From IMG/VR virus record IMGVR_UViG_3300035034_001742, positions 15,522-79,521 of that record: a DNA stretch of 64,000 nucleotides. The stretch is one strand, 5' to 3'. This DNA comes from a virus. The position numbers and the translations under genes were made by a program. A model generated the notes under the pieces. The model made no database searches. It was not told the DNA's origin and saw only the letters and a list, made by a program, of their open reading frames with translations. This document shows positions 27,371 to 53,842 of this stretch, piece after piece; within the stretch, counting starts at the first letter, position 1; every line of letters starts with the position of its first letter.

Positions 27371-28353
27371 CAACAGAATTAAATCAATTAGATGTTATTT
27401 TTATCAGCTTTGATGAAGATAATTGCGAACAGAACTGGGCAGACTTGTTGACCAAGGTTCCATGGGCACAGCGCGTTCATGGTGTAGAAGGCTCCGATGC
27501 GGCACACAAAGCCGCGGCACAGTTAAGCAGTACAGATAGATTCATAAGCGTGGACGCAGACAACATTGTTGATATTAAATTCTTTGATCAGAAGATTGAC
27601 TTCGAGAACGAAAAGTTCAAAGACAAAGTTGTTAGCTGGACTGCAAAGAATCACATCAACGGCTTGGAGTACGGCAACGGTGGACTAAAATGTTGGCCAG
27701 TTGAATATGTAATGAACATGCGCACACACGAAGCTGCCGAGGATGATAAGAACCAAGTTGATTTCTGTTGGGAAGACACCTACGTACAAATGAACAATCG
27801 TTTTTGTACAACATTTCCAAATGGATCGCCACGCCAAGCATTTAGAGCAGGGTTTAGAGAAGGTGTTAAAATGTCTCTGGACCAAGGCAAGAAAGTAAAC
27901 TACAAAGGCATAAAGAATAACATTTGGTGGGGCAACTACAATCGTCTTGTTATATGGGCCACTGTAGGAGCCGATGCCGCTAATGGCGACTGGGCAGTTT
28001 ACGGTGCAAGACTTGGCTTTTACATGACCAATCTCACCGACTGGGACTTTGTGAATGTAAGAGACTTTGCATATCTTAATAAGCTGTTTGCAGAAACAGT
28101 AGGTCCGCAGTTTGCAAGCAAAGACACCCATAGTTTTTATTGTCATAACTCCAAGTACTCGTGGAGCAAAGTAAAACTCGACGAAGAAATAAAACGGTTA
28201 GGCATGATTATACGCAAGGAATCAGGCATGGAAATTGCTGAACTTGACTGTACGCAAAGCCGTTTCTTTAAGGGCGCATATATAAACTTACCACGTACAG
28301 GATCCTACGTAACCGAAGATGAAATGAATCAACTTCGTGATTTAAACAGCTAA
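27367..28353 (+). CDS. Glycosyltransferase-like protein (GT-A/GT2-like)
   Basis: DVIFISFDE...RVHGVEGSDAAHKAAA...FISVDADN (DxD motif)...AFRAGFREGVK. Confidence 0.65.
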   Translation: MTTELNQLDVIFISFDEDNCEQNWADLLTKVPWAQRVHGVEGSDAAHKAAAQLSSTDRFISVDADNIVDIKFFDQKIDFENEKFKDKVVSWTAKNHINGLEYGNGGLKCWPVEYVMNMRTHEAAEDDKNQVDFCWEDTYVQMNNRFCTTFPNGSPRQAFRAGFREGVKMSLDQGKKVNYKGIKNNIWWGNYNRLVIWATVGADAANGDWAVYGARLGFYMTNLTDWDFVNVRDFAYLNKLFAETVGPQFASKDTHSFYCHNSKYSWSKVKLDEEIKRLGMIIRKESGMEIAELDCTQSRFFKGAYINLPRTGSYVTEDEMNQLRDLNS

Positions 28354-28372
28354 CACAACACAGGATACAAAT

Positions 28373-29770
28373 ATGTCAGGAGAAATGGAACGACTTGCAA
28401 AAGTCAAGACCAAACTGGATGCGATTAGCCCCTCATTCTGTACTGCAAAGTGGTTACAAGTAACATTGCATCTGCAAAATGGATTTAATCACAGTTGCCA
28501 CCATCCTAAAACACACAAGATTCCGTTAGAAGAAATAGCTAATAATCCTAGTGCATTGCACAATACTCAGTACAAAAAGCAACAACGTAAGATGATGATC
28601 GAAGGCAAGCGCCCCGATGAGTGTCAGTATTGCTGGAATGTAGAAGACTTACCAGGCGACCAATTATCAGATAGGTATATCAAGTCAGGCGACATTACCT
28701 GGGCCAATGATAAAATAGAAGAAATTGCACAAAGCGATTGGCGAGATGATGTTACACCCACTTATGTAGAAGTAAGCTTTTCAAATCATTGTAACTTCAA
28801 GTGTTCGTACTGTTCTCCAGTACATTCGTCGCAGTGGGCAAAGGAAGCCGCAGAGTTCGGACCGTACCCAACTAGTCAAAAATTCAACGGTATCGAATAC
28901 CTTAAGCAAACTGGACAAATGCCAATACCGCACGATGAGTATAATCCGTATGTCGAGGCATTTTGGGAATGGTGGCCCGAGCTAAGTAAAACGCTTAGAG
29001 TATTCCGTGTAACAGGCGGTGACCCGCTAATGGAAAAGAATACGTTTAAGGTAATGGACAGAATTATTGCTGATCCTATTCCTGCATTAGAGCTCAGCGT
29101 AAACACTAACGGTGGCGTATCAGATAGTCGCATACGCAAGTATGTCGAGAAAGCCAAGCAAGTTGAGAAAGTAATAAGATTAAATCGTGTGTACACCAGT
29201 GTCGACACACATGGCAAGCAAGCCGAGTACATCAGAAGCGGACTTGAATACGATCGCTGGCTGTCGAACATAGATTACATGATGACCGAGCTACCACTTA
29301 CCAAGTTTACAATTATGTGTACTGCAAATATCTTTAGTGTGGTCAACTTTAAACTGCTACTCGAAGACGTATACAAACTGAAGTTAAAGCATTACAGTAA
29401 ACATCGTAAGGTTGCTATCACAATTGATACTTCTATATTGCGCTGGCCTGGTCACCAACGTGCAAACATATTACCACCTGAGTATGCAGACATGATGCAA
29501 CCAGCTCTTGATTATATGCGAGCACATGAAGAAGGCAACGAAGAAAACAATATACCGCATTATCAAGGCTTCTTTGATTTTGAAATTGCAAAGCTAGAAC
29601 GTTTTATTGAATTCATCAAGGCGCCAAAGCATGCAAACGAAGACTACGATCTAGCAACAACACGAAAAGACTTTGTTAAGTTTGTCGATGAGCACGATCG
29701 CAGACGTGGCACAGACTTTAAAGGAACCTTTCCGGAGTTGCTTGATTTTTATAATACACACAAGGAGTAG
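28373..29770 (+). CDS. Radical SAM protein with N-terminal SPASM/twitch-like Cys domain
   Basis: CNFKCSYC; TGGDP; N-terminal FCTAKW...SCHHP...ECQYCW. Confidence 0.9.
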   Translation: MSGEMERLAKVKTKLDAISPSFCTAKWLQVTLHLQNGFNHSCHHPKTHKIPLEEIANNPSALHNTQYKKQQRKMMIEGKRPDECQYCWNVEDLPGDQLSDRYIKSGDITWANDKIEEIAQSDWRDDVTPTYVEVSFSNHCNFKCSYCSPVHSSQWAKEAAEFGPYPTSQKFNGIEYLKQTGQMPIPHDEYNPYVEAFWEWWPELSKTLRVFRVTGGDPLMEKNTFKVMDRIIADPIPALELSVNTNGGVSDSRIRKYVEKAKQVEKVIRLNRVYTSVDTHGKQAEYIRSGLEYDRWLSNIDYMMTELPLTKFTIMCTANIFSVVNFKLLLEDVYKLKLKHYSKHRKVAITIDTSILRWPGHQRANILPPEYADMMQPALDYMRAHEEGNEENNIPHYQGFFDFEIAKLERFIEFIKAPKHANEDYDLATTRKDFVKFVDEHDRRRGTDFKGTFPELLDFYNTHKE

Positions 29771-29773
29771 ACA

Positions 29774-30817
29774 GTGATTGACATTGTTGACGGTGGTTTG
29801 CCAGAGCATTGGGAAATTACAAAAGAATATAATCAGACAATTTATTATATCACAAAACAAATTAACACTCGTTTCCCACGCGATAGAAATTTGCTTATTA
29901 GCACACAATGGGAATGGATGATACCGCCTGATAAAAATTTAAACAGTCCACGGTACGAAAAGCAATACGATAATGTGTTTATACTGTCCACTCTCGATAC
30001 TGTTCCGCGTGACCGTGTAGAAGAATACGAAGCAAAGGGTATTAATGTTTATTACATAGGCAATACTACCGGCCGTGGTTATTTTAGTTTTCATAGCATA
30101 AACAGCAAGCATTTTAAACAGTATACCAACCAAGAACTGGAACCGGTGTCATTTAAAAACAAGTTTTTATGTTACAACAGAAATCCACATGAACACAGGC
30201 TCAAACTTGTAAACGAGATTGTAAAACGTGGACTAGACAAACAAGGCGTAGTTACGCTAGGCGACAACTTTTACACTCACAATGTCACTGGCAAGTATCC
30301 ACTTGCACATGCTGCCGCACCTCGTTCAGTTGAGGAAAATATTAACCAACTAATAACGCAAGGCGATGCCGAAGCGTTAAATGAGTTGACAATACCGCAT
30401 GATACCTATACACTGGGTAACATGGAAATATGGCAAAATACGTTTTTGGTTGTTGTAACTGAGACATCAGTTGAGTCTAACATGCACATAACAGAAAAGA
30501 TACTCAAGCCAATGATTGGCAAGCGTCCGTATATAGTGTTAGGTGATGTCGGACTTGAAGATCACTTACAGACGTGCGGATTTAAGTCGTTTGGTAAATA
30601 TTTCGACACAGCGTTTGACAAACTACCTTCCTATAGCATGGAAAAGTATGTTGCCATATGCGAAATTATCGAACAAATTACAAACAAGTCCGAGCAAGAG
30701 TTGCAAGAACTGTACAACGACATGCGACCAACCATTGAACACAATCACGAAAATGTTAAATGGTTCCAGGATCATAATCAATTAAAGATACAAAACAAAG
30801 GACTTTTTAGGTTATAA
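29774..30817 (+). CDS. GT10-like (GT-B) glycosyltransferase-related protein
   Basis: FLCYNR..H.HR...FLVVVTET...ITEKILKP. Confidence 0.55.
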   Translation: MIDIVDGGLPEHWEITKEYNQTIYYITKQINTRFPRDRNLLISTQWEWMIPPDKNLNSPRYEKQYDNVFILSTLDTVPRDRVEEYEAKGINVYYIGNTTGRGYFSFHSINSKHFKQYTNQELEPVSFKNKFLCYNRNPHEHRLKLVNEIVKRGLDKQGVVTLGDNFYTHNVTGKYPLAHAAAPRSVEENINQLITQGDAEALNELTIPHDTYTLGNMEIWQNTFLVVVTETSVESNMHITEKILKPMIGKRPYIVLGDVGLEDHLQTCGFKSFGKYFDTAFDKLPSYSMEKYVAICEIIEQITNKSEQELQELYNDMRPTIEHNHENVKWFQDHNQLKIQNKGLFRL

Positions 30818-30818
30818 T

Positions 30819-32483
30819 ATGGCTAAAAAACAAGGCGAGTCGTACAGAGAATATAGAGATAGAGTTGTAGACCCTATCTCCGGGGCCTTCTGTGGTGCCA
30901 AATGGTACAATGCAACCATATGGTTAAACAACGGCACAACTACTAGCTGTCACCACCCACCCGCGCACAAAATAGTCGACTTCGAAAACGGAGAGACATA
31001 TGAAGACCTTAAAGCCAATCCTTCATTGATACACAACACCACATACAAGAAGAATGTGCGCAAGCAAATGCTCATGGGCGAACGTCCTAAGGAATGCGAG
31101 TATTGCTGGAAAATTGAAGACTTAGGTCAAGACAAAATTTCCGATCGCGTGTTCAAGAGTGTTATATACACCGATGAAGAGCTTGAAGAATGCCGTGACG
31201 TACATGCCGAAACAGAAGATGTCGATTTAAAGACATTAGAAATTGCGTTCGATTCAAACTGCAACTTTGCATGTTCATATTGTAATGCAAGTTTCTCAAC
31301 CACATGGCAAAAGGATATTCGTCAGAATGGCGCATACCAAAACCTACACAGCGATGGCGCAAGAGCATTCCAGCAAGACGGTGGGTGGACCAAGCAGTTC
31401 AAGAAGAACGAAGCCAATCCGTACACAGAAGCTTTTTGGGACTGGTGGCCTAAACTTAGTAAATCACTGGATCAGTTGCGTGTAACAGGCGGCGATCCTC
31501 CTATGAGCCCAGACTTCTGGAAGCTTGTAGACTGGTGGAAAGACAACGGGCAAGATTTAGACATGAAGTTCGCAGTAAACAGTAACATGGGCCATAAAGG
31601 CAAGACCATGGATAAGTTTGTTGAGTGTTCGCACATTTTTAAAGAATTTATTGTTTACACTTCAAACGAGTCCACGTATGCGCAAGCAGAGTACATTCGC
31701 GATGGTCTAGAATGGTCCTACTGGAAAGAGTCAGTTAATAGATTACTTCAGGAAGGTAGTGTACAGGAGTTGCATGTGATGATGACAATCAACAGTTTAT
31801 GTTTGTTTAGCATTACTGACTTCATGGACTATTGCAACACACTCAAGCGCAAGTACGGACACATGTATGGTGTTTGTTCTGTTAATATATTGCGTTTTCC
31901 AAGTTTCCAAGCACCGGGCACATTGCCTGCAGAGATACGCCACGAACGTGCCGACCATATAGAAAGATGGTTAGCTGATAATCGTGATAATGGTGTTATG
32001 CATGACATGGAAATAGACGGTGTTGACCGATTGGTAGAGTATTTGCGTAGTGTAGATGAGCCACATAGGTACACCAGCTCAATTGAGTCGCGCCACAAGG
32101 ACTTTAAATCGTTTTACAAGCAGTACGACGAACGCCGAGGAAAGGACTTCGTGTCTGCATTTCCTGAATTAGCCGAGTGGTATAACAGCTTACCTTATCA
32201 AGAGTCAATACCAATTTTGCAATTGTACGACGGCGACTCAAGCAAAGGAACAGCAGATCGCAGAGAGCTTGAAGTTCGTGCCAAGACAGACGAGTGGAAA
32301 AACCAAAATACTAACCCCGGTGCCAAGGAGTACAAGGAGAAGAAGTATAATGTTGTAGACTTATCGAGCCTAGGAATTACCGAGCTGAGAAAAGTCTACA
32401 AGCAAGTGTCAGTGGAGGCAATGAATGTCGACTGGGAACGATCGGAGCTCATTGAAGAAATACTTAGGGAACAGGAAAAGTAA
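30819..32483 (+). CDS. Radical SAM protein with N-terminal twitch-like domain and C-terminal extension
   Basis: CNFACSYC; TGGDP; FCGAKW...SCHHP...ECEYCW. Confidence 0.9.
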   Translation: MAKKQGESYREYRDRVVDPISGAFCGAKWYNATIWLNNGTTTSCHHPPAHKIVDFENGETYEDLKANPSLIHNTTYKKNVRKQMLMGERPKECEYCWKIEDLGQDKISDRVFKSVIYTDEELEECRDVHAETEDVDLKTLEIAFDSNCNFACSYCNASFSTTWQKDIRQNGAYQNLHSDGARAFQQDGGWTKQFKKNEANPYTEAFWDWWPKLSKSLDQLRVTGGDPPMSPDFWKLVDWWKDNGQDLDMKFAVNSNMGHKGKTMDKFVECSHIFKEFIVYTSNESTYAQAEYIRDGLEWSYWKESVNRLLQEGSVQELHVMMTINSLCLFSITDFMDYCNTLKRKYGHMYGVCSVNILRFPSFQAPGTLPAEIRHERADHIERWLADNRDNGVMHDMEIDGVDRLVEYLRSVDEPHRYTSSIESRHKDFKSFYKQYDERRGKDFVSAFPELAEWYNSLPYQESIPILQLYDGDSSKGTADRRELEVRAKTDEWKNQNTNPGAKEYKEKKYNVVDLSSLGITELRKVYKQVSVEAMNVDWERSELIEEILREQEK

Positions 32484-33694
32484 TGGATGAATCCAATAAT
32501 CATTTTTGCATGGCGCCATGGCTTCATTTACACATGTGGCCAAATGGTAACGTGTATCCATGTTGTACTGCACCGTCAGAGGATCCATTTGGCAATACCA
32601 AGACTGAATCATTAGAAGAAGTATGGAATGGAGATCGTATGCGAGAGCTACGATCTAACATGCTCTCCGATAAGCCAAGCAAGTCATGTGAACGTTGTTA
32701 CAAACTGGAGGAGCATGGTTCCTTTAGTATGCGCAAAGACATGAACCAAAAATTCAAGCACCGCTATAACGATACCAAAAAGACACACCAAGATGGGCAT
32801 CATCCCGAAATGAAAATGCGATACATGGACATTCGGTTCAGCAACATTTGCAACTTCAAGTGTCGCAGTTGTGGGCCTGAGTTGAGCTCGCTGTGGTACG
32901 ACGATCAGGTTATATTACATGGCAAGCCGGATGGCAAGCGAATACAGCGTCCGTTTAAAACTACCACTGAGCTATGGCAAAACCTTGAAAAGATTCTTCC
33001 TTATGTTGAAGAAGTTTACTTTGCAGGTGGCGAGCCTCTTGTGTCCGTTGAGCATTATGAGATACTAGATTACTTAGTCGAGCATAATAGAACTGATGTG
33101 CGTTTGGTATACAACACCAACTTCAGTAAACTGCGTTTCAAAGGCAAAGACGTATTTGATTATTGGAAAAAGTTTGCAGACGTTAATGTTGGTGCTAGCT
33201 TGGATGCCATGGGAGAACGCGCCGAGTACATGCGTGCAGGAACAGTGTGGGAAGACATAGAAATAAACAGACAGCGTTTGCAAAAAGAATGCCCGCATGT
33301 TTCTTTCTTTATTGCCGCTACTGTATCTCTTTACAACGGCTGGCACTTGCCCGACTTTTACTTGGACTGGCTAAACAAAGGGTTTTCGCATTGGGAATCA
33401 ATCAATATAAATATATTGCATTACCCAGCACACCTCAGCTTAACTGTGTTACCTGCAGAAATCAAAGAACAGATAACTGCAAAGTATAAAAGAGCAATTG
33501 CACGCATACCACCTGAGTACAGAGAATTTAATAGACTGGCAAGCGTGGTTGACTACATGAACAGTCGTGATGACAGTCACATGATTCCAGAATTCTTCAA
33601 GCGCAATGAAACACTTGACGACATCAGAAATGAAGACTTTATTACTGCATTTCCTGAACTAAAGCCCATGATGCAATACAAGGAAACAAAATGA
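32483..33694 (+). CDS. Radical SAM protein with N-terminal twitch-like domain
   Basis: CNFKCRSC; AGGEP; FCMAPWLH...PCC...SCERC. Confidence 0.92.
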   Translation: MDESNNHFCMAPWLHLHMWPNGNVYPCCTAPSEDPFGNTKTESLEEVWNGDRMRELRSNMLSDKPSKSCERCYKLEEHGSFSMRKDMNQKFKHRYNDTKKTHQDGHHPEMKMRYMDIRFSNICNFKCRSCGPELSSLWYDDQVILHGKPDGKRIQRPFKTTTELWQNLEKILPYVEEVYFAGGEPLVSVEHYEILDYLVEHNRTDVRLVYNTNFSKLRFKGKDVFDYWKKFADVNVGASLDAMGERAEYMRAGTVWEDIEINRQRLQKECPHVSFFIAATVSLYNGWHLPDFYLDWLNKGFSHWESININILHYPAHLSLTVLPAEIKEQITAKYKRAIARIPPEYREFNRLASVVDYMNSRDDSHMIPEFFKRNETLDDIRNEDFITAFPELKPMMQYKETK

Positions 33695-33804
33695 AAAACG
33701 ACAGACATGTTGTACTATACAATCGGTATCTAATCTGTTACTACTTGTACATTCCAACATACCGCATTGTAGATGATCAGTTTTGGGACGATGCTAGTAA
33801 ATGA
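33691..33804 (+). CDS. Small Tyr-rich peptide (37 aa), below the ORF-track cutoff
   Basis: MKNDRHVVLYNRYLICYYLYIPTYRIVDDQFWDDASK; ATGA overlaps with both flanking radical SAM genes; AAGGA SD. Confidence 0.6.
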   Translation: MKNDRHVVLYNRYLICYYLYIPTYRIVDDQFWDDASK

Positions 33805-35018
33805 GCAAAGCCAAAACTAACTTCTGCGTGCTGCCTTGGGTACACCTAAGTGCCGATACAGATGGCACCTTTAGTCCGTGCTGTCTGTATCAAGGTGCCA
33901 TCAAACGCGACGATGGTAAGAAGCACATAACCGAAGGTGTTACTGTTAGTGACGTGTGGAACGGCAAATACATGCAGGATCTGCGTACCCAGTTTATTAA
34001 CGATGAGAGGCCGCATGAGTGTCGTTACTGCTGGGACTTAGAAGACGGTGGCATGAAAAGCAAGCGAATAAACGACTTAGAGCGGTTCCATGTACCAGAA
34101 CAAGCCTATGAGGCTGTTACCTCGGAAAAACCCATCTATTTCGACTTAAAACTAGGCAGTATATGCAATCTAAAGTGCCGTATATGCACGTTTGAGAACA
34201 GTATCAAGTGGGCCAAAGATGCCAAAGCGTTAAAGCTTGCAGACGACAGTCTTGTGGATTACTACCTTGCAAACAGTCGGTGGGCAGAAGACTATCCTGA
34301 ATTTTGGCAAGACCTATTGCAATACACAGATGATGTTGTGCAAATAGACTTTGCAGGTGGTGACCCATTACTGATCAAGGAGCATTACCGTTTCTTAGAA
34401 ATGTTAACTGAGCGTACAGATGTATCTAACATAGCCATTCACTATAATACCAACGGCACCATACTGCCCTCGGATCATGTACTACAAAATATATGGCCGC
34501 AGTTCAAGCGTGTCGAGATAATGCTAAGCATAGATGCAGTAGGCAAGAAGTTTGAATATCAGCGACATGGAGCAAAGTGGCCAACTGTGGATAAGAATGT
34601 TGCAAAGTTTGATGCATTCGACAATACTGTTTTACAGGTTTGCCATACAGTAAATATACTAAACGTTCTTGACATTTGCGACTTCGTGGTATGGGCAGAA
34701 GATAAGAACCTTGAAATCTATTTTAACATGTTGTATCATCCGGATTATTACAATATTAAAAACTTGCCGCTGTCGGCAAAACAAGTTGTAACTAACCGAG
34801 TTAAACACATGCTAAATACACATACGTTTAAATACAAGTCGGCCAGTAAGTCACTTGAAGAAATACGCGACTATGTTGGTACACCAGGTGGGACCGGCGA
34901 GTTAATTGCATTTAATGATATTACACACAAACTTGATGATTTTAGAAATGAAGACTTTGCATCAACTTTCCCGGAGTTAAAAGAGCACCTATATGGAGAA
35001 GCCAAACAAACTACCTGA
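33801..35018 (+). CDS. Radical SAM protein with N-terminal twitch-like domain
   Basis: CNLKCRIC; AGGDP; FCVLPWVH...PCC...ECRYC. Confidence 0.92.
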   Translation: MSKAKTNFCVLPWVHLSADTDGTFSPCCLYQGAIKRDDGKKHITEGVTVSDVWNGKYMQDLRTQFINDERPHECRYCWDLEDGGMKSKRINDLERFHVPEQAYEAVTSEKPIYFDLKLGSICNLKCRICTFENSIKWAKDAKALKLADDSLVDYYLANSRWAEDYPEFWQDLLQYTDDVVQIDFAGGDPLLIKEHYRFLEMLTERTDVSNIAIHYNTNGTILPSDHVLQNIWPQFKRVEIMLSIDAVGKKFEYQRHGAKWPTVDKNVAKFDAFDNTVLQVCHTVNILNVLDICDFVVWAEDKNLEIYFNMLYHPDYYNIKNLPLSAKQVVTNRVKHMLNTHTFKYKSASKSLEEIRDYVGTPGGTGELIAFNDITHKLDDFRNEDFASTFPELKEHLYGEAKQTT

Positions 35019-36321
35019 TGTATTCTGTACGGCACCGTGGACTCACACCTATGTTAGTCCTCAAGGCGAAAGACGCCTATGCTGTGCCAGTAGAGAAGAC
35101 GCATCATTTCAACGACAGTACATAGATGCTGACACCGGAACAAAGACCGACACGTTCAATCCTGATACTTTAGTCCAGCACTGGAACTCAGAGTACATGA
35201 AAGATATTCGCAAGCGCATAATGGCCGGTGAGAAGATATCACAATGCGAAGTGTGCAACGATCAAGTTCTCAATCTACACACCTATCGTAACTATTTTAC
35301 TCAGACTCTCTTTCCTCATCACATTGATAAAATTTACGAGAGTACATCGGAAGATGGCCACACCACACTTGAACCCGTTAGCTTCGATTATCGACTTAGC
35401 AACCGTTGCGACTTTAAATGTCGTATGTGCGGAGAGCAACTTAGCTCAAGCTGGGAAGCCGAAAAGCGAAAGCATGGCATGTGGGATCCTAAGATTGACA
35501 AGTGGATGGCACCAGAACTACGCATTCCAATCAAAGACTTTCAAGAGAATGTGCTCGAAGATGAGCTACAACGTGCCGTAGACAACGAAACAGTTGAAGA
35601 ATTATATTGGGTAGGCGGCGAACCATTGATGTGGGAGAAGCACTGGACCGTGATGCAACAACTTGTTGATACAGGTCACTCCAAGAATGTGGTTGTGCGC
35701 TACAATACGAACCTAAACCGATTGAGTCGTAAAGATTCAAAGCTGTACGACTTGTTGCCGCATTTCAAGCGCGTTAACCTGTGCGCTAGCATAGACGGTG
35801 GTGGGCCAATAGGCGAATACATACGAACCGGATTAAACTGGACAAAATGGTTAGACAATTTCAAACAAGGACTATTCTTAAAAGAACAGTTCGGTAACGA
35901 CGGCATTGTGTTCGATGTAACACTGACCATGCCCGGGTTGTTTGCCCTGCAAGACATGTTTGACTTGGCAATTGAGTTAGACGTCAAAACTTATTTAAAG
36001 ATTACATTTTCGTTTGACAGTACTGTTCTCATGTCGCCCATGTCATTGCCACGCAATGTTCTTGATGGCATCATAGATGACTTGTTGGTTCATATGACAC
36101 CACGAGCAACCGATAAAACACAAGTGTACATTGACACGCTTAAAGAAATGAAGAAGCGCCCTGTATTTGAAGAGCAGTATGACAACTATCAAGACGGCTT
36201 TCGAGAAGGACGTAAACGTTTGCTTGACATAGAAGCAATTAGAAAACAACCAATTATCATGGAAGAAATACTTTCGACCAACAGTCTTGCACTGAGTTGG
36301 TGGAATCAGGAGATACAATGA
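34993..36321 (+). CDS. Radical SAM protein with N-terminal twitch-like domain
   Basis: CDFKCRMC; VGGEP; FCTAPWTH...LCC...QCEVC. Confidence 0.92.
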   Translation: MEKPNKLPDVFCTAPWTHTYVSPQGERRLCCASREDASFQRQYIDADTGTKTDTFNPDTLVQHWNSEYMKDIRKRIMAGEKISQCEVCNDQVLNLHTYRNYFTQTLFPHHIDKIYESTSEDGHTTLEPVSFDYRLSNRCDFKCRMCGEQLSSSWEAEKRKHGMWDPKIDKWMAPELRIPIKDFQENVLEDELQRAVDNETVEELYWVGGEPLMWEKHWTVMQQLVDTGHSKNVVVRYNTNLNRLSRKDSKLYDLLPHFKRVNLCASIDGGGPIGEYIRTGLNWTKWLDNFKQGLFLKEQFGNDGIVFDVTLTMPGLFALQDMFDLAIELDVKTYLKITFSFDSTVLMSPMSLPRNVLDGIIDDLLVHMTPRATDKTQVYIDTLKEMKKRPVFEEQYDNYQDGFREGRKRLLDIEAIRKQPIIMEEILSTNSLALSWWNQEIQ

Positions 36322-37583
36322 GCAAAGATCCAAATAAAACATTTTGTGTGCTACCGTGGATTCACTTAGCAACACATCCTATGGGGCATGTTACTCTTTG
36401 TTGTGAAGCTGACATGAACAATAATGCTAGTAGCAGTAGAGACAAGTTCGATACCATAGACGGCAAGCAACTAGAAGAACTAAAGTATTTAGGCAAGCAT
36501 GCAATAACAAAAATACACAATAGCGATTACTTTAACGAAGTGCGCAAGCAAATGTTAGAAGGCGAACGTCCTTCGGCTTGTACCAGATGTTTTGACCGCG
36601 AAGACCAAGGACTAGACAGTAAGCGATTGCTGGAACACCGTGAGTATCCCAATTATAAAATCGAAGAAGCAATCGAAAACACAAACGACAACGGCAGTCT
36701 AAAGAAAACAGATTTCAGATTTGTTGAGTTTAGGCTGGGCAATGTGTGTAATGTAAAATGTAGAACATGTAACCCTGCTAGCTCAAACAGATGGAAAACC
36801 GATTACGAAAAACTACAAGACGGTGACTGGGATGGTGCCAAAGCAATTCCTCAGTACCGTGGAATAGATTGGAGTACATTTGACTGGTGCGAAGACCCAG
36901 ACGTTTATGAGGATATTCTTGATAAGTGTGAAAACTTAGAAAGCCTATATATAAATGGCGGTGAGCCAACACTCATTAAAGAGCATTGGACATTCCTTCA
37001 GCAACTCATTGACAAAGGATTTGCAAAGAATATTAAAGTATGGTACAGTTTGAATATGACAATGATTCCAGACATTGCATTTGAGTTGTGGAGTCAATTT
37101 AAAGAAGTTGAAATACGCGCAAGCATAGACGATATTGAACACCGTAATACTTACATAAGACACCCGACCAAATGGAAGAATGTGCTGAAAACTGTTGACC
37201 TATGCTTGAATAGTGACACTGTTAGAATTAAAATATTGCAAACTATAAGTGTATATAATTTCCCATACTTGAGTGAGTTTCACGATTACTGGAACAACTA
37301 CAACGACCGCATAGAAATTGCACACAACTTTGTTATGTATCCTGACTTCATGGCACCCGATGTAATTCCGTTGGAAATAAGAAAGAAAATAATTGAAAAG
37401 ATTATGCAATGCAATACAATGTCGCAACAACAGAAGCATGAAATACAACAATTATACGGAACAAAAGAACACGATCCCGAGAAATGGCAACTGTTTCTTA
37501 ATTACACTGCTGAGCTTGACTCAATAAGACGCGAATCGTTTGATGAAACTTTTCCTGAATTTAAAGAATTAATAGATGGTTAA
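36318..37583 (+). CDS. Radical SAM protein with N-terminal twitch-like domain
   Basis: CNVKCRTC; NGGEP; FCVLPWIH...LCC...ACTRC. Start moved to ATG 36318 (AGGAG SD, ATGA overlap). Confidence 0.92.
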   Translation: MSKDPNKTFCVLPWIHLATHPMGHVTLCCEADMNNNASSSRDKFDTIDGKQLEELKYLGKHAITKIHNSDYFNEVRKQMLEGERPSACTRCFDREDQGLDSKRLLEHREYPNYKIEEAIENTNDNGSLKKTDFRFVEFRLGNVCNVKCRTCNPASSNRWKTDYEKLQDGDWDGAKAIPQYRGIDWSTFDWCEDPDVYEDILDKCENLESLYINGGEPTLIKEHWTFLQQLIDKGFAKNIKVWYSLNMTMIPDIAFELWSQFKEVEIRASIDDIEHRNTYIRHPTKWKNVLKTVDLCLNSDTVRIKILQTISVYNFPYLSEFHDYWNNYNDRIEIAHNFVMYPDFMAPDVIPLEIRKKIIEKIMQCNTMSQQQKHEIQQLYGTKEHDPEKWQLFLNYTAELDSIRRESFDETFPEFKELIDG

Positions 37584-46972: not shown

Positions 46973-47347
46973 CTATTTGATTCGTGACTTGAAGTCAATA
47001 CTAGTTTCCAGCATGGTCAAATACGATACCAGCATGCCGTGGTCCTTAAAGTTAACATTGGTATATGTCACGCCAATAGTGTCCGAGTTGTAGTGCAGTT
47101 TGCATTGCTCCTTGCGGTTGCAAACGGCGCGCAAATCAGTTGGCGTCACCAGCCCCTTGGGCATGATAAATTTGGACTCTTTCCATTTTGAGTGGTGTGT
47201 GATCACCACTGTTCTTCTGTGTTTGCTCATGCGTCGGTACCTTGATGCGATTAATCCGCTATAATAATCATCGAACAGCACATTGACTCTGTTCGATTCA
47301 CGTCGGCGAACCAGTCGCCTTGTTTCTGCAGGGTCACGTAACTTCAT
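46973..47347 (-). CDS. Hypothetical basic protein
   Basis: Start moved to MKLRD. Confidence 0.6.
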   Translation of the reverse strand: MKLRDPAETRRLVRRRESNRVNVLFDDYYSGLIASRYRRMSKHRRTVVITHHSKWKESKFIMPKGLVTPTDLRAVCNRKEQCKLHYNSDTIGVTYTNVNFKDHGMLVSYLTMLETSIDFKSRIK

Positions 47348-47657
47348 TTTTCCAACGCCTAAGCGGAACCAAGTTGTGACCACAAATGGCCAGCCATGTC
47401 TCTATTTTTCTTAATTCTCGCCTGGCGCACTTGATTTTTATGACTGCATACGGCTCGTCCACAACCATGCCGCTCAGATCAAACCCTTCTTCAATCTCAG
47501 CAGCCATGGCTTGTATGTTGGGTTGTATTTTTTTCATGTTCAGTATCTTTGTGGGAGCATCTTTACCTTCTATAAAGAACATGAGATCTAACACATAGTA
47601 TCCGGGTATTTGCTTGACAACTATATTGCATTTAATCATGAAAGCCAGTCTTAACAT
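47334..47657 (-). CDS. Hypothetical protein (small-protein array)
   Basis: Overlapping ORF chain. Confidence 0.6.
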   Translation of the reverse strand: MLRLAFMIKCNIVVKQIPGYYVLDLMFFIEGKDAPTKILNMKKIQPNIQAMAAEIEEGFDLSGMVVDEPYAVIKIKCARRELRKIETWLAICGHNLVPLRRWKNEVT

Positions 47658-48087
47658 ATTGTGCCGATATGTATGTAAAACCTTCCAGTCCCATCATGAA
47701 CGCAAACCTTTCTGCTTGATACCAAGTCCCAAACCGAGCCACATAGTAAGCGGTGTACTCTCCATGTCGATTACTGGTCAGCCTGTACTTGACATCCAGT
47801 CTGTTCAGAACGCTGTTTGCTGTGCTGTAAAACACTCGCGCCCGCTCCGTCATTTCGTCATGGTGCATGTAATCCCATATGTGAGGGTACGGCAAGTAAA
47901 CTTGCCAAGTGCCGCGAGTCTTGCTTATGCTGAACCAGTGTTCGCGTATGGCCACCGCTACCCAGTCGGCATCACCTACCACCGAAACGGGGTCACCGCC
48001 AAACATGGTGAACGGTTCAAGACTTACTTGGTATCTTTTGTATCTGTGCAATGTGGTACTCCTTGATTGCGTTTTCGTAATTCTCAC
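47632..48087 (-). CDS. Hypothetical protein (small-protein array)
   Basis: C-terminal ARFGTWYQAERFAFMMGLEGF; start uncertain. Confidence 0.6.
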   Translation of the reverse strand: MRITKTQSRSTTLHRYKRYQVSLEPFTMFGGDPVSVVGDADWVAVAIREHWFSISKTRGTWQVYLPYPHIWDYMHHDEMTERARVFYSTANSVLNRLDVKYRLTSNRHGEYTAYYVARFGTWYQAERFAFMMGLEGFTYISAQYVKTGFHD

Positions 48088-48448
48088 AATGGTATCCTTC
48101 GAATGCCATCAGGGTAACGAACCCTTCCAGTTCCCGCATGTTGTCCGCAGTGAAAGTGATCAGTATTCCCAGCCGCATCATGGCATAGCCCACTATCCCA
48201 CTTAACTTTGTGGGCTCCGGATCCCCACAGCTGATGTCCCAAGTGGTGTCTCGGACACCACTGTCTTGGGCAATATCGATTATGCCCTGACTGGCCTCCT
48301 CCAATGTCGAGAAGTACATCTCGACAACTTGGCCAACACCCGCCCCAGCCAAGTTATCCATCAAGCCGTACCAAGCCACGTTCAACTCAGGCACCACACG
48401 CCAAGCGTCCGCCTGCACCCACTCCAATTGGTATTTGATGTTGATCAT
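48017..48448 (-). CDS. Hypothetical protein (small-protein array)
   Basis: AGGAGA SD; RELEGFVTLMAFEGY motif. Confidence 0.65.
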   Translation of the reverse strand: MINIKYQLEWVQADAWRVVPELNVAWYGLMDNLAGAGVGQVVEMYFSTLEEASQGIIDIAQDSGVRDTTWDISCGDPEPTKLSGIVGYAMMRLGILITFTADNMRELEGFVTLMAFEGYHCENYENAIKEYHIAQIQKIPSKS

Positions 48449-48551
48449 GATCTCTCCTGGGCGGTCTGCGCGTCACAACTGCTAGCACAGCTAGCCGCCG
48501 AAGCGCCTGGTGGCCTGATCACAGCGGTAAACCACGTACTTAAAATGTCGA

Positions 48552-49112
48552 TCATGCCGACAGCGCCTGGTAAGACCGTTTCAAGGAACCGTGTTCCACC
48601 CACCCTGCCAACAGCAAGTATTGTTCCAATTCCTGTTTTCGACGGGGATTCAAGTAAACAGTGAGTGAGTTTCGAGTGAGTTCAAACACCGGTACACAAC
48701 CCACCACCAAGTGTCGGAACTCGGGGAACCGAGCCGGGTCAACCGTGTACACCAACCCACCGTTGCGCCGCACGCGAGTTCGCGTGTAGGTTGTGCTGAA
48801 TTCCGCCGCTGAGTCGCGCATGTTATAGCCTCCGCTGTAAAATGTTTTGAAACGGCACCCGGGCACCATGAGAGTGATGTATGTGATGGCACTCTGCCTG
48901 GCATGCCAGGTGGCCCAATGGGCCACAATTTGAGAGGTGGCACCTCTGTGGGAACACACATGCAACATGCGCCCCACTTGGTCAGCGCCCAGTTCCACTC
49001 GCAAGTCGCTGACCAAGTCCAAGAGCTCACGGTCATCCGGGCGTCCCGTGACGCTCACTCTCAAGCCGTAGTTCAACAGTCGCCCCACGCCGGCTTGATC
49101 CCTCCGGTACAT
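48552..49112 (-). CDS. Hypothetical protein, apparent fusion of two ORFs (internal start at 48821)
   Basis: GGAGG SD before ATG 49112 and before ATG 48821; N-terminal half is a paralog of 49114-49428. Confidence 0.6.
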   Translation of the reverse strand: MYRRDQAGVGRLLNYGLRVSVTGRPDDRELLDLVSDLRVELGADQVGRMLHVCSHRGATSQIVAHWATWHARQSAITYITLMVPGCRFKTFYSGGYNMRDSAAEFSTTYTRTRVRRNGGLVYTVDPARFPEFRHLVVGCVPVFELTRNSLTVYLNPRRKQELEQYLLLAGWVEHGSLKRSYQALSA

Positions 49113-49113
49113 G

Positions 49114-49428
49114 CTAGTATCCTCCGCTGTAAAATTTTCTAAGTGAGCACCCATGCTCTGCCAAGTTGAGATATGCCGCTGCCAGCTCTCGAGCGCGCCA
49201 GGTGGTCCAAGTGGCTTCAAAGACGGCAAAGCCGTCCCGACCATGGTAAGTCACGCGCCCCACAGCTTGAGCCTCAAGGTCCACTCGCATGACGCCAATT
49301 AGAACCATGATCTCACGATATCGAAGTTCGTCCATTTGACCATGGTCATTCATGATGGCCGGCACGCTCACAGCCAAGCTGTAGCCCAGCACGGGCCGAG
49401 CGCCTTCAAGATCCATTGAAGTGATCAC
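49114..49428 (-). CDS. Hypothetical protein (small-protein array)
   Basis: Clear paralog of the N-terminal half of 48552-49112. Confidence 0.7.
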   Translation of the reverse strand: MITSMDLEGARPVLGYSLAVSVPAIMNDHGQMDELRYREIMVLIGVMRVDLEAQAVGRVTYHGRDGFAVFEATWTTWRARELAAAYLNLAEHGCSLRKFYSGGY

Positions 49429-49690
49429 CGTCGGGTATGACCTCTGTGGTCACGTCCACATGCATGAGTGCAATGCTGGTGCGTGCCATTTCAGCCTCCG
49501 ACAGGGTGTTCCACGTTGCCCGCATGTGAACTTGGTCGGGTTTGCACTCATGCCAAGGCATGGAGGTGATGGTTCCACCCATGTCGCGCACTGTTTGAGA
49601 CACTCGATTCATGGCTCGATGGCCTTCGGCATGTGCCACAAACATGGTGGTGGCGGGACGATAATGGATGTACAGGTGTGTTAGTCGCAC
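49406..49690 (-). CDS. Hypothetical protein (first gene of the array)
   Basis: GTG 49690 with AAGGA SD, downstream of the promoter at 49727-49756. Confidence 0.6.
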   Translation of the reverse strand: MRLTHLYIHYRPATTMFVAHAEGHRAMNRVSQTVRDMGGTITSMPWHECKPDQVHMRATWNTLSEAEMARTSIALMHVDVTTEVIPDGDHFNGS

Positions 49691-49936
49691 GTGGTTTCCT
49701 TGATGAACGTGAATGTTATGCAATCTAGTGTACATGGTGCCGACACCGTTTGTCAAGCGAAAAAAACGCGCAAAAAAATTCTTGGGGTGCCATGTTGGAT
49801 GAAGCGTGGACCCAAGAGTGACCCGACCCTTTTCCAACTTGAAAAAAGCGGGGCGCAGTTGGCGGCGGTCAAAAAAAAGGTTGCATTTTGCTGTACAGCA
49901 TGCTTAGCATGTAAATTTTGCACTTTTTATTATGTG

Positions 49937-50011
49937 TTATGCTTTTTAGTTATAAGCAAAACGTGCGCACAAAAAAGCACGCTTTAGCGTGCTTATGCTT
50001 TTTAGTTATAA
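49937..50011 (+). repeat. 19-bp direct repeat TTATGCTTTTTAGTTATAA (49937-49955, 49993-50011)
   Basis: Exact copies flanking the terminator hairpin. Confidence 0.85.
49971..49994 (-). terminator. Intrinsic terminator after the 221-aa ORF
   Basis: AAAAAAGCACGC-ttta-GCGTGCTT; U-tract on the minus strand. Confidence 0.75.
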
Positions 50012-50012
50012 C

Positions 50013-50678
50013 TTATGCAATTAATGCTAAATTGCTTGTTGTTGTTTTGTTTGCTGTTATGCTTAGCACGTTGTGCATGTTTACGCTACGCGTATGCACG
50101 CTGTGCGTTACGTTGTTAGTTACATTGTGTACTGTACTGCTAACATTTAAAAGTGCTTTGCTTGCGCTTGCTGTTAAGTATTGCGCTACTGTATTTTTGC
50201 ACAGTACTTGCAAAGTTTGTGCGCACACATAAAATGTTTTGTTTGCACTGCGCACGTTGCTAAAAGTTAAGTACACAATTTGTAATGCGCTTGTTTTGTT
50301 GCTGTGCGCTATGCTAGCAATGTTTGTGCGCGTAAAGCTAGCTTTGCTTGCTACAAAGTTTTGCACGTTGTTAGCGTTGTTTACAGCAAGCTTGCTTGCA
50401 CTGTTTTTAACTGCATTAGCATACGTTAATGCGCTACTGCTAAACAGTGCATTTACACTGCTTACTTTTAAAATTGTAAGTGCTTTGTGTTGTGCGCTAG
50501 TAGTTACTTTAGTAACTTGCACTACATTTGCAAAAGTAGTAACAGCGTTTGCGTGCATGTTTTGCACAGCATTGCAAGTGTTTTGCGCTACTTGTACGCT
50601 GTTAATTTGTGCATTGTTGTAATGTGTTGCAATTTGTGCAGTAGTGTAATTTACGTTGTTTAATGTAATTGTTTGCAT
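50013..50678 (-). CDS. Hypothetical 221-aa protein lacking D, E, G, P and W
   Basis: Own promoter and terminator; ACACT-ATG start context shared with four neighbouring genes. Confidence 0.75.
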   Translation of the reverse strand: MQTITLNNVNYTTAQIATHYNNAQINSVQVAQNTCNAVQNMHANAVTTFANVVQVTKVTTSAQHKALTILKVSSVNALFSSSALTYANAVKNSASKLAVNNANNVQNFVASKASFTRTNIASIAHSNKTSALQIVYLTFSNVRSANKTFYVCAQTLQVLCKNTVAQYLTASASKALLNVSSTVHNVTNNVTHSVHTRSVNMHNVLSITANKTTTSNLALIA

Positions 50679-50712
50679 AGTGTTTACTACTTTTATTTGT
50701 AACAAGCAGTTA

Positions 50713-51058
50713 TTTGCTTGCTTTGCTTATGTTGTACATAATAGCACGTTGCATGCATAACACAAGCATTATTTGCATTTATTTTAAATTAATTTATGCG
50801 CATTATAATTAATAAAACGCGCATGCGCGTTTAACATAAAAACAGCAACAATGCAAATTAGCGTTATAACTTTTTGTTATAACTTATAACAAAGTAGTAC
50901 TGTACAAATGTTTTTAAACTGTTATAGTATACGCATATTAAAGCAAAGCGCAAAAAGCGCAAAAACAGCAAAAAGCATTAAACGTAAAAAAAGCTAAAAT
51001 AAAGCTTGCAATGTTAAACGCGCAATGTATAATGTACAACATAAGCAAAGCAAGCAAA
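50713..51058. repeat. 27-bp perfect inverted repeat (50713-50739 / 51032-51058) at the starts of two divergent promoters; 18-bp palindrome at 50815-50832
   Basis: TTTGCTTGCTTTGCTTATGTTGTACAT and its reverse complement; AAACGCGCATGCGCGTTT. Confidence 0.9.
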
Positions 51059-51170
51059 ACAGCTTACAGCTAGCGTGCAACACAACGTGTACAGTTACAC
51101 GCTAGCAAACACGCGCAATAATGCGCACACAACGTTGCAACACTAGCAACTACAAAAAAGGCAATACACT

Positions 51171-51422
51171 ATGCAATTTACAAAGTATATGTTTACTCCT
51201 AACTCGCACAACACTGCACTTACGCTTCCGCTAGGCACTCCTATCATGAATGACGACATAGGACTATTCTTGCAAGACGGCCCTTGTCAAGCAGACGTAG
51301 CGCAGTTTATTGTTAATAAACAGGGCCTCATAGAGGGGTTTATTATAGACAATAAAAGTGCGCACTTGCAAACAGTTAAAAACGTGTTTAAAAGTATTAT
51401 AGCTAGCAAAAAGCGTGCTTAA
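51171..51422 (+). CDS. Hypothetical protein
   Basis: AAGG SD, ACACT-ATG, promoter at 51006-51033. Confidence 0.7.
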   Translation: MQFTKYMFTPNSHNTALTLPLGTPIMNDDIGLFLQDGPCQADVAQFIVNKQGLIEGFIIDNKSAHLQTVKNVFKSIIASKKRA

Positions 51423-51498
51423 TTAAATGCAAATAGTGCTTGCAATGTGCAAGCACTGTGTTACAATACACTACACTAACAAAAAGGAAGCAAACACT

Positions 51499-51747
51499 AT
51501 GCGCGAATATTTTACTTTTAAGCAAGACTGCGATGCATACAACTTAGCAGGCATTGCAATGGGCGGCACTGGGTTTTATAGTGACTGCGACAGCATATTT
51601 AACGATGCGCAAACAGACGACGAAGACGAAGACGTTGCAAGCTTTAACTTAACACTAATTGACGGTGTTTATGTAGCAGAAGGGGTGTATATAAAAGACA
51701 GCTACAAGCAAGCACTGTTAACACTGTTTAAGCACATAATAGCGTAA
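51499..51747 (+). CDS. Hypothetical acidic protein
   Basis: AAGGA SD, ACACT-ATG (start moved to MREYF), promoter at 51440-51467. Confidence 0.75.
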   Translation: MREYFTFKQDCDAYNLAGIAMGGTGFYSDCDSIFNDAQTDDEDEDVASFNLTLIDGVYVAEGVYIKDSYKQALLTLFKHIIA

Positions 51748-51789
51748 CATTTAGCAAATAGTGCTTGCACATTGCAAGCACTAACTTTG

Positions 51790-52775
51790 CAATACTTTTG
51801 CGAAGCATTTTTGCGAAACACAGGTTGCGGTACAGGTTTGCGAAACAGGTTTGCTAGGCGTGGTACAGGGGCAAGCGCAACAGGCCGGACAGTATTCCAA
51901 AACCAAGAACCAAAAACAAAAAACCAAAAACAAGGTTGTGTTTTAGAATTACTTTTAGTGCAACAAGTTTCAAGTAAACAATTAGGATTGGCGTGTGGTT
52001 TCCGCAATCAGAGAACAGGAGTAGTGACCCAGACTTTGTTATCCTAAAATGTTATCACAAGCGGCGGTTGCTTTCATGGTGTGGCAAACGTGGCTTGTGT
52101 TTTATTCTACTTGCTTGGTTTTGTTAACCAAGCGTCAACGGCAGTTCGCACGCGCTCTTTTCGCAAGACAGGAACGGTAGCGAACTGCTTTTTTTTGGGT
52201 CCACGATCTGGCCTGCCATGTTGTCCACCTGTGCCGTTTTGGTTTACACTTCTGTCCCGCCCATCCTCGCACCACGATCTGGCCTGCCATTCTGGTTACT
52301 GGTTGGGGTTACTGGTAACGCCTGTCCAGTCGCCGTCTAAGACGGGCATCCGCCTGTGCCGTTTGGCTGTGCCGTTCTGCTTTCCACTTCTGCCTCGCGC
52401 GTTTGGAATACTAACGGCGGCACAGGCGTTTGCCTTGCCCGTTTGTCTGCCGCTGTGTGTCTGTGTGCTTGTGTGCTGTGCGGTATCAACCTCCTGACCC
52501 AAGTGTAAGCTGATCAAGAGATTGTGGTACACAAGCTGATTGCGAGTGTTACCAGAACCACACCCACCGCTCGTCTCTCAAGGCGCCCGCGTCTATAGGC
52601 AAATTTTGGAGACAACTCTGCGAAATTTCTGTGAGGTTTTGGTTTGAAGATCGCAACTGGAATTTTGCGAAGGTGAATCTGGTGCGAGGATCTGGTCCCG
52701 GCAAGTGGACAGAAAGAGGTACCACTGGGAAGTTTTAAATGAGCGAGGCCCCTTCCCGGAGGTGGGGTTTGTTAC
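51790..52775 (-). ncRNA. Candidate large structured ncRNA or structured cis-element (boundaries approximate)
   Basis: Promoter at 52780-52808 with no RBS-led ORF downstream; several long-range inverted repeats and a 19-bp direct repeat. Confidence 0.4.
52141..52196 (+). terminator. Hairpin GCAGTTCGC...GCGAACTGC followed by T8
   Basis: 9-bp stem with a large structured loop and a T-tract. Confidence 0.45.
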
Positions 52776-52823
52776 TATAATTGTAACACAATGGATGCCT
52801 GGTTGCAACCTTTTTTAAACGGG

Positions 52824-52851
52824 AAAAAACGCTTGCAAGCGCAAGCGTTTT
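52824..52851 (-). terminator. Intrinsic terminator
   Basis: AAAAAACGCTTGC-aagc-GCAAGCGTTTT after the stop at 52855. Confidence 0.8.
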
Positions 52852-52854: not shown

Positions 52855-53028
52855 TTAGTGACTGGCTTTAATAACTATTCTATTTTTAACTATTATGTTG
52901 ACAAGCTTGCTTTTATATGTTGCAGTGTAGTGCATCTCGTCGCCGTCGCCACAGCGCATTTTGTTTGTGTAAACTAAATTGCTGTAGTTTGCTAAGTTTT
53001 TACGTGTTGCTGTTTTAGTTGCTTGCAT
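52855..53028 (-). CDS. Hypothetical protein (57 aa)
   Basis: GGA SD, ACACT-ATG, own promoter; start moved to MQATK. Confidence 0.65.
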   Translation of the reverse strand: MQATKTATRKNLANYSNLVYTNKMRCGDGDEMHYTATYKSKLVNIIVKNRIVIKASH

Positions 53029-53112
53029 AGTGTTTGCATCCGTTTTGTTAATGTGCGTACAGTATAGCACAATGCTTGCAATGTGCAAGCATTGTTTGCA
53101 TTTTATTTTAAA

Positions 53113-53388
53113 TTAATACACTAGCACAAGTCCCTCTTCTTCTAGTTCTTCGTATAGCTCTTCCCACAGCATAGTGTCAAGCTCTAGTTTTATGCACGTT
53201 TTAATGTCGTCAGCGTTAATGTCGCCGCTGTTAACTGTTACAATGCTGTCTTCTAGCTCTACGTCTGCGTTAGCAGTGTTTACAAGCATGCTGTACGTTT
53301 GTAGCAGTGTAATGCCGTCTTCAATAAACCCGTTTGTAATGTTAGCTTGCGCTTTGTTAAAAACTGTTTGTAATGTTATTTGTAACAT
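53113..53388 (-). CDS. Hypothetical acidic protein
   Basis: GGGA SD, ACACT-ATG, own promoter; acidic C-terminus. Confidence 0.7.
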   Translation of the reverse strand: MLQITLQTVFNKAQANITNGFIEDGITLLQTYSMLVNTANADVELEDSIVTVNSGDINADDIKTCIKLELDTMLWEELYEELEEEGLVLVY

Positions 53389-53490
53389 AGTGTGCATCCC
53401 GTTTTGTATAACTGTTTAAGTGTGTGTAGTGTAACACACTGTTAGCGCATTGCAAGCTTTAATTTGCTTGCTAGCTAGTTAATGCGTTTT

Positions 53491-53813
53491 GCTTGTTTGC
53501 TTTAACTTGTGTATATAATAGCACGTTGCTACTGTATTGCAAGCATTATTTGCATTTATTTTTTAAACGAATACTTGCTAATGAACTTAGGAATTTAATG
53601 TCCATGTTAGCAATTTGTTGCAAAAAAGTGTTGTCAGCAGTGTCAAGCACATTATTTACAAAAATAGTGTCCTCTGCGCTCAGTGTCGTTTTTGCGCCCA
53701 TGTTCTTGCGTAGCCAATTAGCCTTTTGTGTTAGTGTCATGTTGTTCTCGCTTGTTTGCTTTAACTTGTGTGTATAATAGCACGTTGCTACTGTATTGCA
53801 AGCACTATTTGCA
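53491..53813 (+). repeat. 64-bp direct repeat (53491-53554 / 53750-53813; 62/64 identical) containing a promoter
   Basis: Direct comparison; flanks ORF 53546-53740. Confidence 0.9.
53546..53740 (-). CDS. Hypothetical protein (64 aa)
   Basis: Own promoter; leader AACAAGCGAGAACAAC shared with the gene starting at 54180. Confidence 0.65.
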   Translation of the reverse strand: MTLTQKANWLRKNMGAKTTLSAEDTIFVNNVLDTADNTFLQQIANMDIKFLSSLASIRLKNKCK

Positions 53814-53842
53814 AAAAGAATAGAATTATTTTTACTGGAATT

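Follow-up and report, generated by a model that had tools for sequence, protein, structure and literature searches.

A gene cassette free of GA, GG, TC and CC in a freshwater giant phage encodes a 221-aa protein written with 15 kinds of amino acid

The locus and its dinucleotide-free island

The window analyzed here is a stretch of 64,000 nucleotides (positions 15,522-79,521 of a 79.5-kb IMG/VR record, CheckV completeness 22%) that carries T4-type baseplate genes and one gene for a 3416-aa protein. Among cultured phages, the closest match to its baseplate wedge protein is in PA5oct, a 287-kb Pseudomonas jumbo phage (43% identity), and the window comes from an uncultured giant myovirus of fresh water, a distant relative of that phage. 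The public sequencing runs that contain the stretch are lake-water metagenomes; they are DNA runs, with no RNA runs among those listed, and contigs from four public runs yielded only identical, low-depth pieces.

Within the window lies an island (Table 1) in which GA, GG, TC and CC are completely missing from both strands over 1281 bp, against about 230 occurrences expected; the rest of the window contains about 90 of these dinucleotides per 500 bp. In sequences simulated under a first-order Markov model of the whole record, the longest run free of all four was 51 bp on average and 67 bp at most. The island encompasses a terminator, a 221-aa ORF with its leader and promoter, a spacer of about 215 bp, and a divergent promoter with a 130-nt leader, and it extends up to the AAGG ribosome-binding site of the gene that follows, at about 51160. 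The four forbidden dinucleotides form two reverse-complementary pairs, and they are missing also from the promoter, the leader, the terminator and the intergenic DNA. Because the junctions between codons obey the ban as well, the constraint acts on the nucleic acid, at the DNA or RNA level, and constraints imposed by tRNAs, codon usage or the protein are excluded. The G+C content of the island is 36%, which is kept by a 3.2-fold excess of GpC. Palindromes devoid of GR and YC (for instance, GCATGC, GCGC and AGCT) occur frequently in the island, so that general restriction avoidance was rejected; avoidance of UV lesions was rejected as well, given that TT is abundant.

The ORF starts with the ATG at 50678, and its product lacks D, E, G, P and W, precisely the five residues that cannot be encoded without GA, GG or CC; the charge-relevant residues of this protein are 14 lysines and arginines. 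When the island was shuffled 5000 times with its dinucleotides preserved, the mean length of the longest open frame was 89 codons, and the probability of a frame of at least 222 codons was 0.0004. Codon position 1 in the ORF is 75% purine. The frame is longer than expected by chance, the protein has 190 clusters of homologues, and its fold is predicted with confidence (see below); therefore, the ORF is a real gene.

The promoter of this gene is preceded by a AAATGCAAATAATGC element that extends up to about position 50785 and is paralogous to TTGCAA-16-TATTAT promoters at 53542-53515 and 53801-53774; the promoter region recurs as 79-80% identical repeats at 53488-53562 and 53044-53117. The leader, for which the transcription start was placed from the position of the -10 box, carries AAGTAG where the neighboring genes have AAGG, GGAA or GGGA. 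The start context ACACTATG is common to five early genes (50671-50678, 51164-51173, 51492-51501, 53021-53028 and 53390-53397). The initial annotation had picked out the protein without D, E, G, P and W, the correspondence of these residues to GA-, GG- and CC-containing codons, the unexpectedly long open frame, the promoter, the terminator and the shared start context, as well as a ribosome-binding region without GG or GA, unlike those of the neighbors. All these observations hold, and the reduced-alphabet ORF turns out to be part of a larger feature, the 1281-bp DNA island.

Table 1 Features of the island and of the adjacent early genes (window coordinates)
Feature	Position	Strand	Basis
GA/GG/TC/CC-free island (no 5'-GR, no 5'-YC)	49880..51160	both	zero counts, simulations
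Terminator hairpin (8 bp, 5 GC) followed by TTTTTT; terminator-like on the plus strand too	49975..49994	-	terminator scoring
221-aa ORF using 15 amino acids; member of a large uncharacterized phage protein family	50013..50678	-	ORF, shuffles, codon periodicity, homologues, predicted structure
Putative 5' leader lacking a Shine-Dalgarno sequence, with AAGTAG for AAGGAG; ends in ACACT followed by ATG	50679..50731	-	sequence reading
Promoter of the ORF: -35 TTGTGT (50765-50760), 16-nt spacer, -10 TATTAT (50743-50738)	50738..50765	-	repeat and sequence comparison
Divergent promoter TTGCAA-16-TATAAT of the plus-strand unit	51006..51033	+	promoter listing, sequence comparison
First gene of the plus-strand unit, 83 aa; only partly purged (TC/CC at 51197-51329)	51171..51422	+	
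Small acidic protein gene, 82 aa from the ACACTATG start; coding strand TC/CC-free, GA/GG kept for D/E/G	51499..51747	+	
Three-gene unit (53546-53740, 53113-53397, 52855-53028/53088)	52901..53818	-	each gene with its own TTGCAA-type promoter

Several other segments of the window are unusual in their own right. The island abuts a G+C-rich block at 47000-49840 (47-57%, versus about 40% elsewhere) that consists of minus-strand genes and looks like a foreign insertion; at least two of its genes are paralogous (48552-49244, with FYSGGY in its interior, in the context FKTFYSGGYNMRDS, and the ORF at 49114-49428, which ends in FYSGGY). A segment of about 1 kb between two convergent early units (51885-52850) is ORF-poor and G+C-rich (54%), contains CCAAAAAC-like runs and has no Rfam match; indeed, no Rfam families and no tRNAs were found in the 45-64 kb part of the window. 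At 28373-37583, there are six mutually paralogous radical SAM genes, homologues of which are missing from the other island-bearing records, with the exception of one weak match in G005. A 20-kb radical SAM cluster was considered as a feature linked to the islands and rejected, not being present in G001 and G002.

The protein family and its reduced alphabets

The initial annotation had proposed a search for homologues of the 221-aa protein and a structure prediction. A word-indexed search yielded 50 homologues (37-90% identity, E-values from 3.6e-107 to 6e-8), and a profile search (alignment A2) extended the family to 190 clusters at 50% identity with E<=1e-3, 163 of these at <=1e-10. Among 51 family sequences, 13 columns are invariant and about 47 are nearly invariant, and the conserved motifs (AAKHK, ANVQLF, NAVKRSA, QVAQYLTASA and H-x-V-x-VRT) are all carried by the window protein. 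These homologues, along with the shuffle results, contradict the alternative raised at the outset, namely that the ORF is a by-product of composition without homologues. Neither Pfam nor PHROG contains a family for the window protein or for eight of its normal-alphabet relatives, and cultured phages gave no DNA or protein match for the island, the 221-aa protein or two normal-alphabet relatives. No relative with a solved structure was detected by sequence, and a search with the back-translated YLTPSAAK pattern returned no match.

AlphaFold2, run on an alignment of the reduced-alphabet members only, predicts an alpha/beta fold with high confidence (pLDDT 88.3, pTM 0.83). Foldseek produced no match in the PDB and matched only uncharacterized phage proteins in BFVD (best E-value 4e-6, TM-score 0.50-0.58); the ESM Atlas gave no usable match. 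VIA-align aligned the model with YaeO (Z 5.3 over 70 residues, rmsd 2.1) and with Sm-like, WYL and Hfq structures (Z 3.6-5.4), all of which fall within the noise range of this tool. The protein does not fit the DNA-mimic anti-restriction proteins of the Ocr/ArdA type, which have a strongly acidic surface: it has no D or E among its residues, and only the small proteins encoded next to it are acidic. Because no acidic column is conserved, even among the normal-alphabet members, the protein is, judging from the family alignment, more likely to act early in infection by binding or regulation than as a metal-dependent enzyme.

Among about 180 full-length members of the family, 105 use all 20 residues, 37 lack both D/E and G/P/W, and 3 lack G/P/W only. 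At the columns where the normal members have D, E, G, P or W, the reduced members show D->N/A (D->N being the commonest at D columns), E->Q/T, P->A, W->Y and G->N/S/K, whereas E->K, P->L and W->stop are essentially not seen. These replacements are the chemically nearest permitted residues rather than those that G->A or C->T mutation would give. Given such nearest-residue replacements and the GpC enrichment, the purge is maintained by selection against the motif, not by decay. The initial annotation had set two signatures against each other, and it is the selective one (D/E->Q/T/A) that the tally of replacements bears out; that of GR->AR mutation does not appear, with E->K almost never found. 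The same annotation held that a DNA-level constraint had overridden protein-level selection. The constraint, at the DNA or RNA level, is real, but the overriding is not: the family is conserved and its fold is predicted confidently, so that protein-level selection continues to work inside the permitted alphabet.

In a tree of 149 members of the family, the reduced alphabet requires at least 10 changes on well-supported branches, and the clade that includes the window protein is nested among five normal-alphabet members with support of 100. Import of the gene from a donor with an odd composition was rejected because the recoded members are nested among the normal ones. The estimate of recurrence is conservative since a shared odd composition should bring the reduced sequences together in the tree, and yet, they are scattered. 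Thus, the purge has recurred many times within a single family.

Strand pattern and lineage-specific forbidden sets

Outside the island, several small genes of the window lack TC and CC on the coding strand alone. In addition to the small acidic protein gene, which has no antisense open frame longer than 39 codons, the coding strand of the three-gene unit is TC/CC-free except for one patch at 53569-53592. No homologues of these neighboring small proteins are detectable in other loci. A perfect hairpin, AGTGCTTGCA-N3-TGCAAGCACT, is repeated at 51435-51457, 51753-51775 and 53069-53095, where it overlaps the TTGCAA -35 box; it is terminator-like for one strand and promoter-like for the other.

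We surveyed the strand pattern in the window and 11 related loci. In this set, 219 genes are normal, 11 are free of both YC and GR, 17 are YC-free on the coding strand only (with the strand unambiguous from closed antisense frames in 7 of these and assigned from the coding score, ATG starts and co-orientation in the others), and none are free of GR only. In the 17 genes, the absence of TC and CC from the coding strand is equivalent to the absence of GA and GG from the template strand, coding-strand GA and GG are normal, and the encoded proteins are small, very acidic and proline-free; the reverse pattern does not occur. At the codon junctions of the 11 genes free of both motifs, there is 1 GR junction versus 188 expected and 1 YC junction versus 153 expected. 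In the 17 one-sided genes, YC junctions are absent (115 expected), and avoidable GR junctions number 84 versus 219 expected, that is, 0.38 of the expectation compared to 0.81 in normal genes; the GR that persists is mainly in D, E and G codons. The 17-to-0 strand pattern combined with the reduction of GR junctions therefore indicates that each strand is purged independently, the template strand always and the coding strand as far as the protein permits.

Islands around the homologue of the 221-aa protein are kept in 10 of the 12 loci (L015 and L016 are near-identical) and comprise only 1-2 kb per record. In the 326-kb record G004, there are no islands, and the homologue, 33% identical, uses the normal alphabet. 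In another of the loci, about 8 kb of co-oriented small genes (L012:4200-12570) show almost no TC or CC on the coding strand; this stretch includes several further reduced-alphabet families, one of which is represented by 92-aa paralogues (7813-8091 and 11089-11367).

For two of the three family members that lack G, P and W but use D and E normally, DNA was obtained (L079 and L080, from different clades). Both genes reside in islands, L079:1-1650, of at least 1650 bp, and L080:200-2213, of about 2000 bp, each of which has 2 GG, no CC and normal GA and TC, and each of which holds small acidic proteins besides the family member. The ribosome-binding sites in these islands are GAGAG-like, and the promoters are TTGACA-17-(C)ATAAT/CACAAT, in contrast to the GA-banning window, where the -35 boxes are TTGCAA or TTGTGT. 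Thus, the forbidden set differs between lineages. Because some lineages have GG/CC-only islands and others GR/YC islands and the promoter hexamers match the respective bans, the specificity of whatever reads the motif varies by phage lineage, with GG as the core, and the reader acts on promoter DNA, too. Such lineage-varying specificity is a poor fit with a fixed host function. Separately, we observed that the edge of the L080 island (200-400) is GA-rich (33 GA and 1 TC per 200 bp), with tandem-repeat-like frames on the opposite strand.

Candidate readers of the motif and comparison with known systems

The interpretation we favor, tentatively, is that the first-expressed cassette is kept free of a motif-specific guanine modification made by the phage itself. 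Under this model, the virion DNA would carry a guanine hypermodification at GA and GG, and selection would strip 5'-GR-3' on both strands from the promoter, leader, ORF and terminator of the first-expressed cassette. The motif-free cassette would then remain unmodified on the incoming genome, the host RNA polymerase, presumably the only one at the disposal of such phages, would recognize the promoter and read the unmodified template at once, and the cassette would be invisible to nucleases that sense modified bases. We infer both the reader, that is, the modification, and the benefit, early transcription, in part from work on cultured phages. PA5oct contains modified G at GA and/or GG (PMC12191111), a 7-deazaguanine (dPreQ0) is inserted at GA and GGC in phage CAjan (PMC7544227), and in phage iggy, a 7-deazaguanine is inserted at GA only (PMC10484667). 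Transcription of PA5oct depends on the host RNA polymerase alone (PMC7318152), and bacterial RNA polymerase is blocked, probably when it initiates, by deazapurines that bear bulky groups at position 7 (PMC4838386).

PA5oct itself encodes GTP cyclohydrolase I and two PTPS genes, and the related G004 has one of each. The early terminal-repeat region of PA5oct (NC_071039.1) carries mini-islands: 267,253-267,563, located upstream of the tRNA cluster and containing two (duplicated) TTGCAA-17-TATAAT promoters, is GR-free over 311 bp and free of both motifs over 217 bp, compared to a simulated maximum of 104 bp; 27,594-27,698 is a GC-rich patch of 105 bp free of both; and gp099 (264,906-265,149) has a coding strand YC-free over 244 bp, which is borderline against chance. 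In the island-bearing records, which are 8-45% complete, searches for TGT/DpdA, QueC, PTPS and GTP cyclohydrolase I found none; PF01702 had no match in G000 and four related records, which are 22-45% complete, phage DpdA proteins being divergent; and FolE, QueD, QueE and QueC, present in PA5oct and G004, were not found in the island-bearing partial records. Because these records are partial and lack thymidylate synthase as well, the absence of modification genes is uninformative rather than negative. A comparison of 4- and 6-bp palindromes with and without GR/YC, intended to reveal a footprint of protection by modification, was uninformative, too: their ratios of observed to expected counts did not differ in any of the genomes, and PA5oct, the positive control, was no exception.

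Several observations count against the modification model. PA5oct and G004, which possess precursor genes, have no large islands, and the purge is confined to a stretch far smaller than the whole early region. The published promoters of PA5oct carry TTGAC, which contains GA (PMC7318152), so that a modified GA need not disable the -35 box. The model also leaves unexplained the repeated recoding of one particular protein family. With slightly more reserve, we propose the generalization that hypermodified phages may keep modification-free first-gene cassettes, in which the banned set would report the modification motif and the encoded proteins would be rewritten to 15 or 17 letters with the fold kept.

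An alternative that we consider unlikely is that the motif is recognized, on RNA or on exposed single strands, by a factor of the host or of a competitor, and that the first-expressed genes must be immune to this factor. The candidates would be an ssDNA deaminase or nuclease with 5'-YC specificity that attacks the displaced non-template strand, an effector that modifies or cleaves RNA, and Rho. The strand pattern is in line with such a factor, the TC/CC purge being always on the coding strand. The primary clefts of Rho bind 5'-YC (PMC12360218), Rho avoidance shapes the coding-strand composition of bacteria (PMC13323073), and the noise-range structural match of the 221-aa protein involves, along with Sm-like barrels, the Rho inhibitor YaeO/Rof. 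CmdT exemplifies a defense protein that reads a dinucleotide, GA in ssRNA (PMC11618068). However, in the island, both strands are purged, promoter and spacer included, and the forbidden set is closed under reverse complement. Rho is largely excluded because UC is abundant in the L079 and L080 islands: with UC at full density there, Rho could still bind, which argues strongly against this factor, and a transcript that evades Rho by a YC-free message alone is not what we find, with GR banned too. CmdT predicts a ban on GA in the message, where the message-strand rule is YC, and it is triggered late, by a capsid protein (PMC11618068). A deaminase is at odds with the replacements, which are not deamination products, and no YC-specific anti-phage deaminase or nuclease was found in the literature searched.

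It is quite improbable that the DNA that enters or is used first avoids, at the double-strand level, a CRISPR PAM or a site cut by a nuclease of the host. The candidate sites include the CC PAM of type I-F, NGG of Cas9, TTC of type I-C, and many restriction sites that contain GG or CC. The GG/CC-only islands are purged symmetrically on both strands, as expected under a ban on a CC/GG PAM. Moreover, a first-entering region exists, because PA5oct-type phages have fixed ends and a 39-kb terminal repeat full of early genes, and several islands are near contig ends. Against this possibility, a cut or an R-loop elsewhere in the genome would still be lethal, when only 1-2 kb are purged; GR/YC-free palindromes are frequent in the island; the acidic-protein genes keep GA and GG on one strand at normal density, with the other strand fully purged and the avoidable GR only partly removed, a pattern that is not predicted by an additive cost per PAM; and a TTC PAM entails no need to remove ATC, CTC and GTC.

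Finally, a mutational by-product, that is, hypermutation by a YC-specific deaminase or drift, with the ORF open merely because stops are rare, would be compatible with the impossibility of TGA in the island composition, the open antisense frames of 104 and 127 aa and the prevalence of D->N at D columns, but it is contradicted by the shuffles, the strong codon periodicity, the homologues with their conserved motifs and confident predicted fold, the replacements (E->Q, P->A and W->Y rather than E->K, P->L/S and W->stop), the G+C retained through GpC excess, which deamination decay would not achieve, and the independent recurrence of recoding, and is thus exceedingly improbable.

Whatever the reader, the family represents a natural recoding experiment, having been rewritten at least 10 times without D, E, G, P and W and at least 3 times without G, P and W, with the fold still predicted. 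In a defined set of early genes, a two-letter DNA constraint can dictate the promoter hexamers, the ribosome-binding sites and the composition of the proteins. If the reader is the phage's own modification, the banned set would allow the modification specificity of uncultured phages to be read from sequence alone and would reveal an undescribed cost of hypermodified DNA, in expression from the incoming genome; if it is a host factor, the islands would point to a new dinucleotide-recognizing defense. The mini-islands make this question accessible at the bench, PA5oct being culturable.

We found no description of GA/GG/TC/CC-free phage islands in the literature. The closest parallels are the phages with 7-deazaguanine, in which the same dinucleotide class, G followed by A or G, is targeted, the motif varies between lineages in the way that GR-banning and GG-banning islands do, and which include PA5oct, the nearest cultured relative of the window phage. 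The cited papers on CAjan, iggy and PA5oct, however, describe no motif-free islands or recoded genes, and the island-bearing phages are known here from partial genomes for which we infer the modification. In restriction-site and PAM avoidance, selection likewise removes short motifs that are read by a host enzyme; the known cases involve 4-8-bp sites and are usually genome-wide, whereas here, an entire dinucleotide class is removed completely, only in an expression cassette of 1-2 kb, in a partly strand-specific manner and at the cost of five amino acids.

Rho avoidance resembles the pattern described here in that the messages of the neighboring genes are YC-free, but differs in that the 221-aa gene bans GR, too, that the sister lineages ban CC and GG only and keep UC, and that untranscribed promoter DNA obeys the ban as well. 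The CmdTAC system is also a defense that reads a dinucleotide, GA, one of the four banned here, but the ADP-ribosyltransferase CmdT acts on single-stranded mRNA only and is triggered late (PMC11618068). The ban on TC and CC, stricter on the message strand, is not explained by CmdT. Reduced-alphabet proteins have been designed or obtained experimentally, and the window protein, predicted to be an alpha/beta protein built from 15 residue types without any acidic residue, glycine or proline, is comparable to these. Unlike them, it is a natural protein, one of dozens of recoded relatives, and the cause of its reduced alphabet is a constraint on the DNA.
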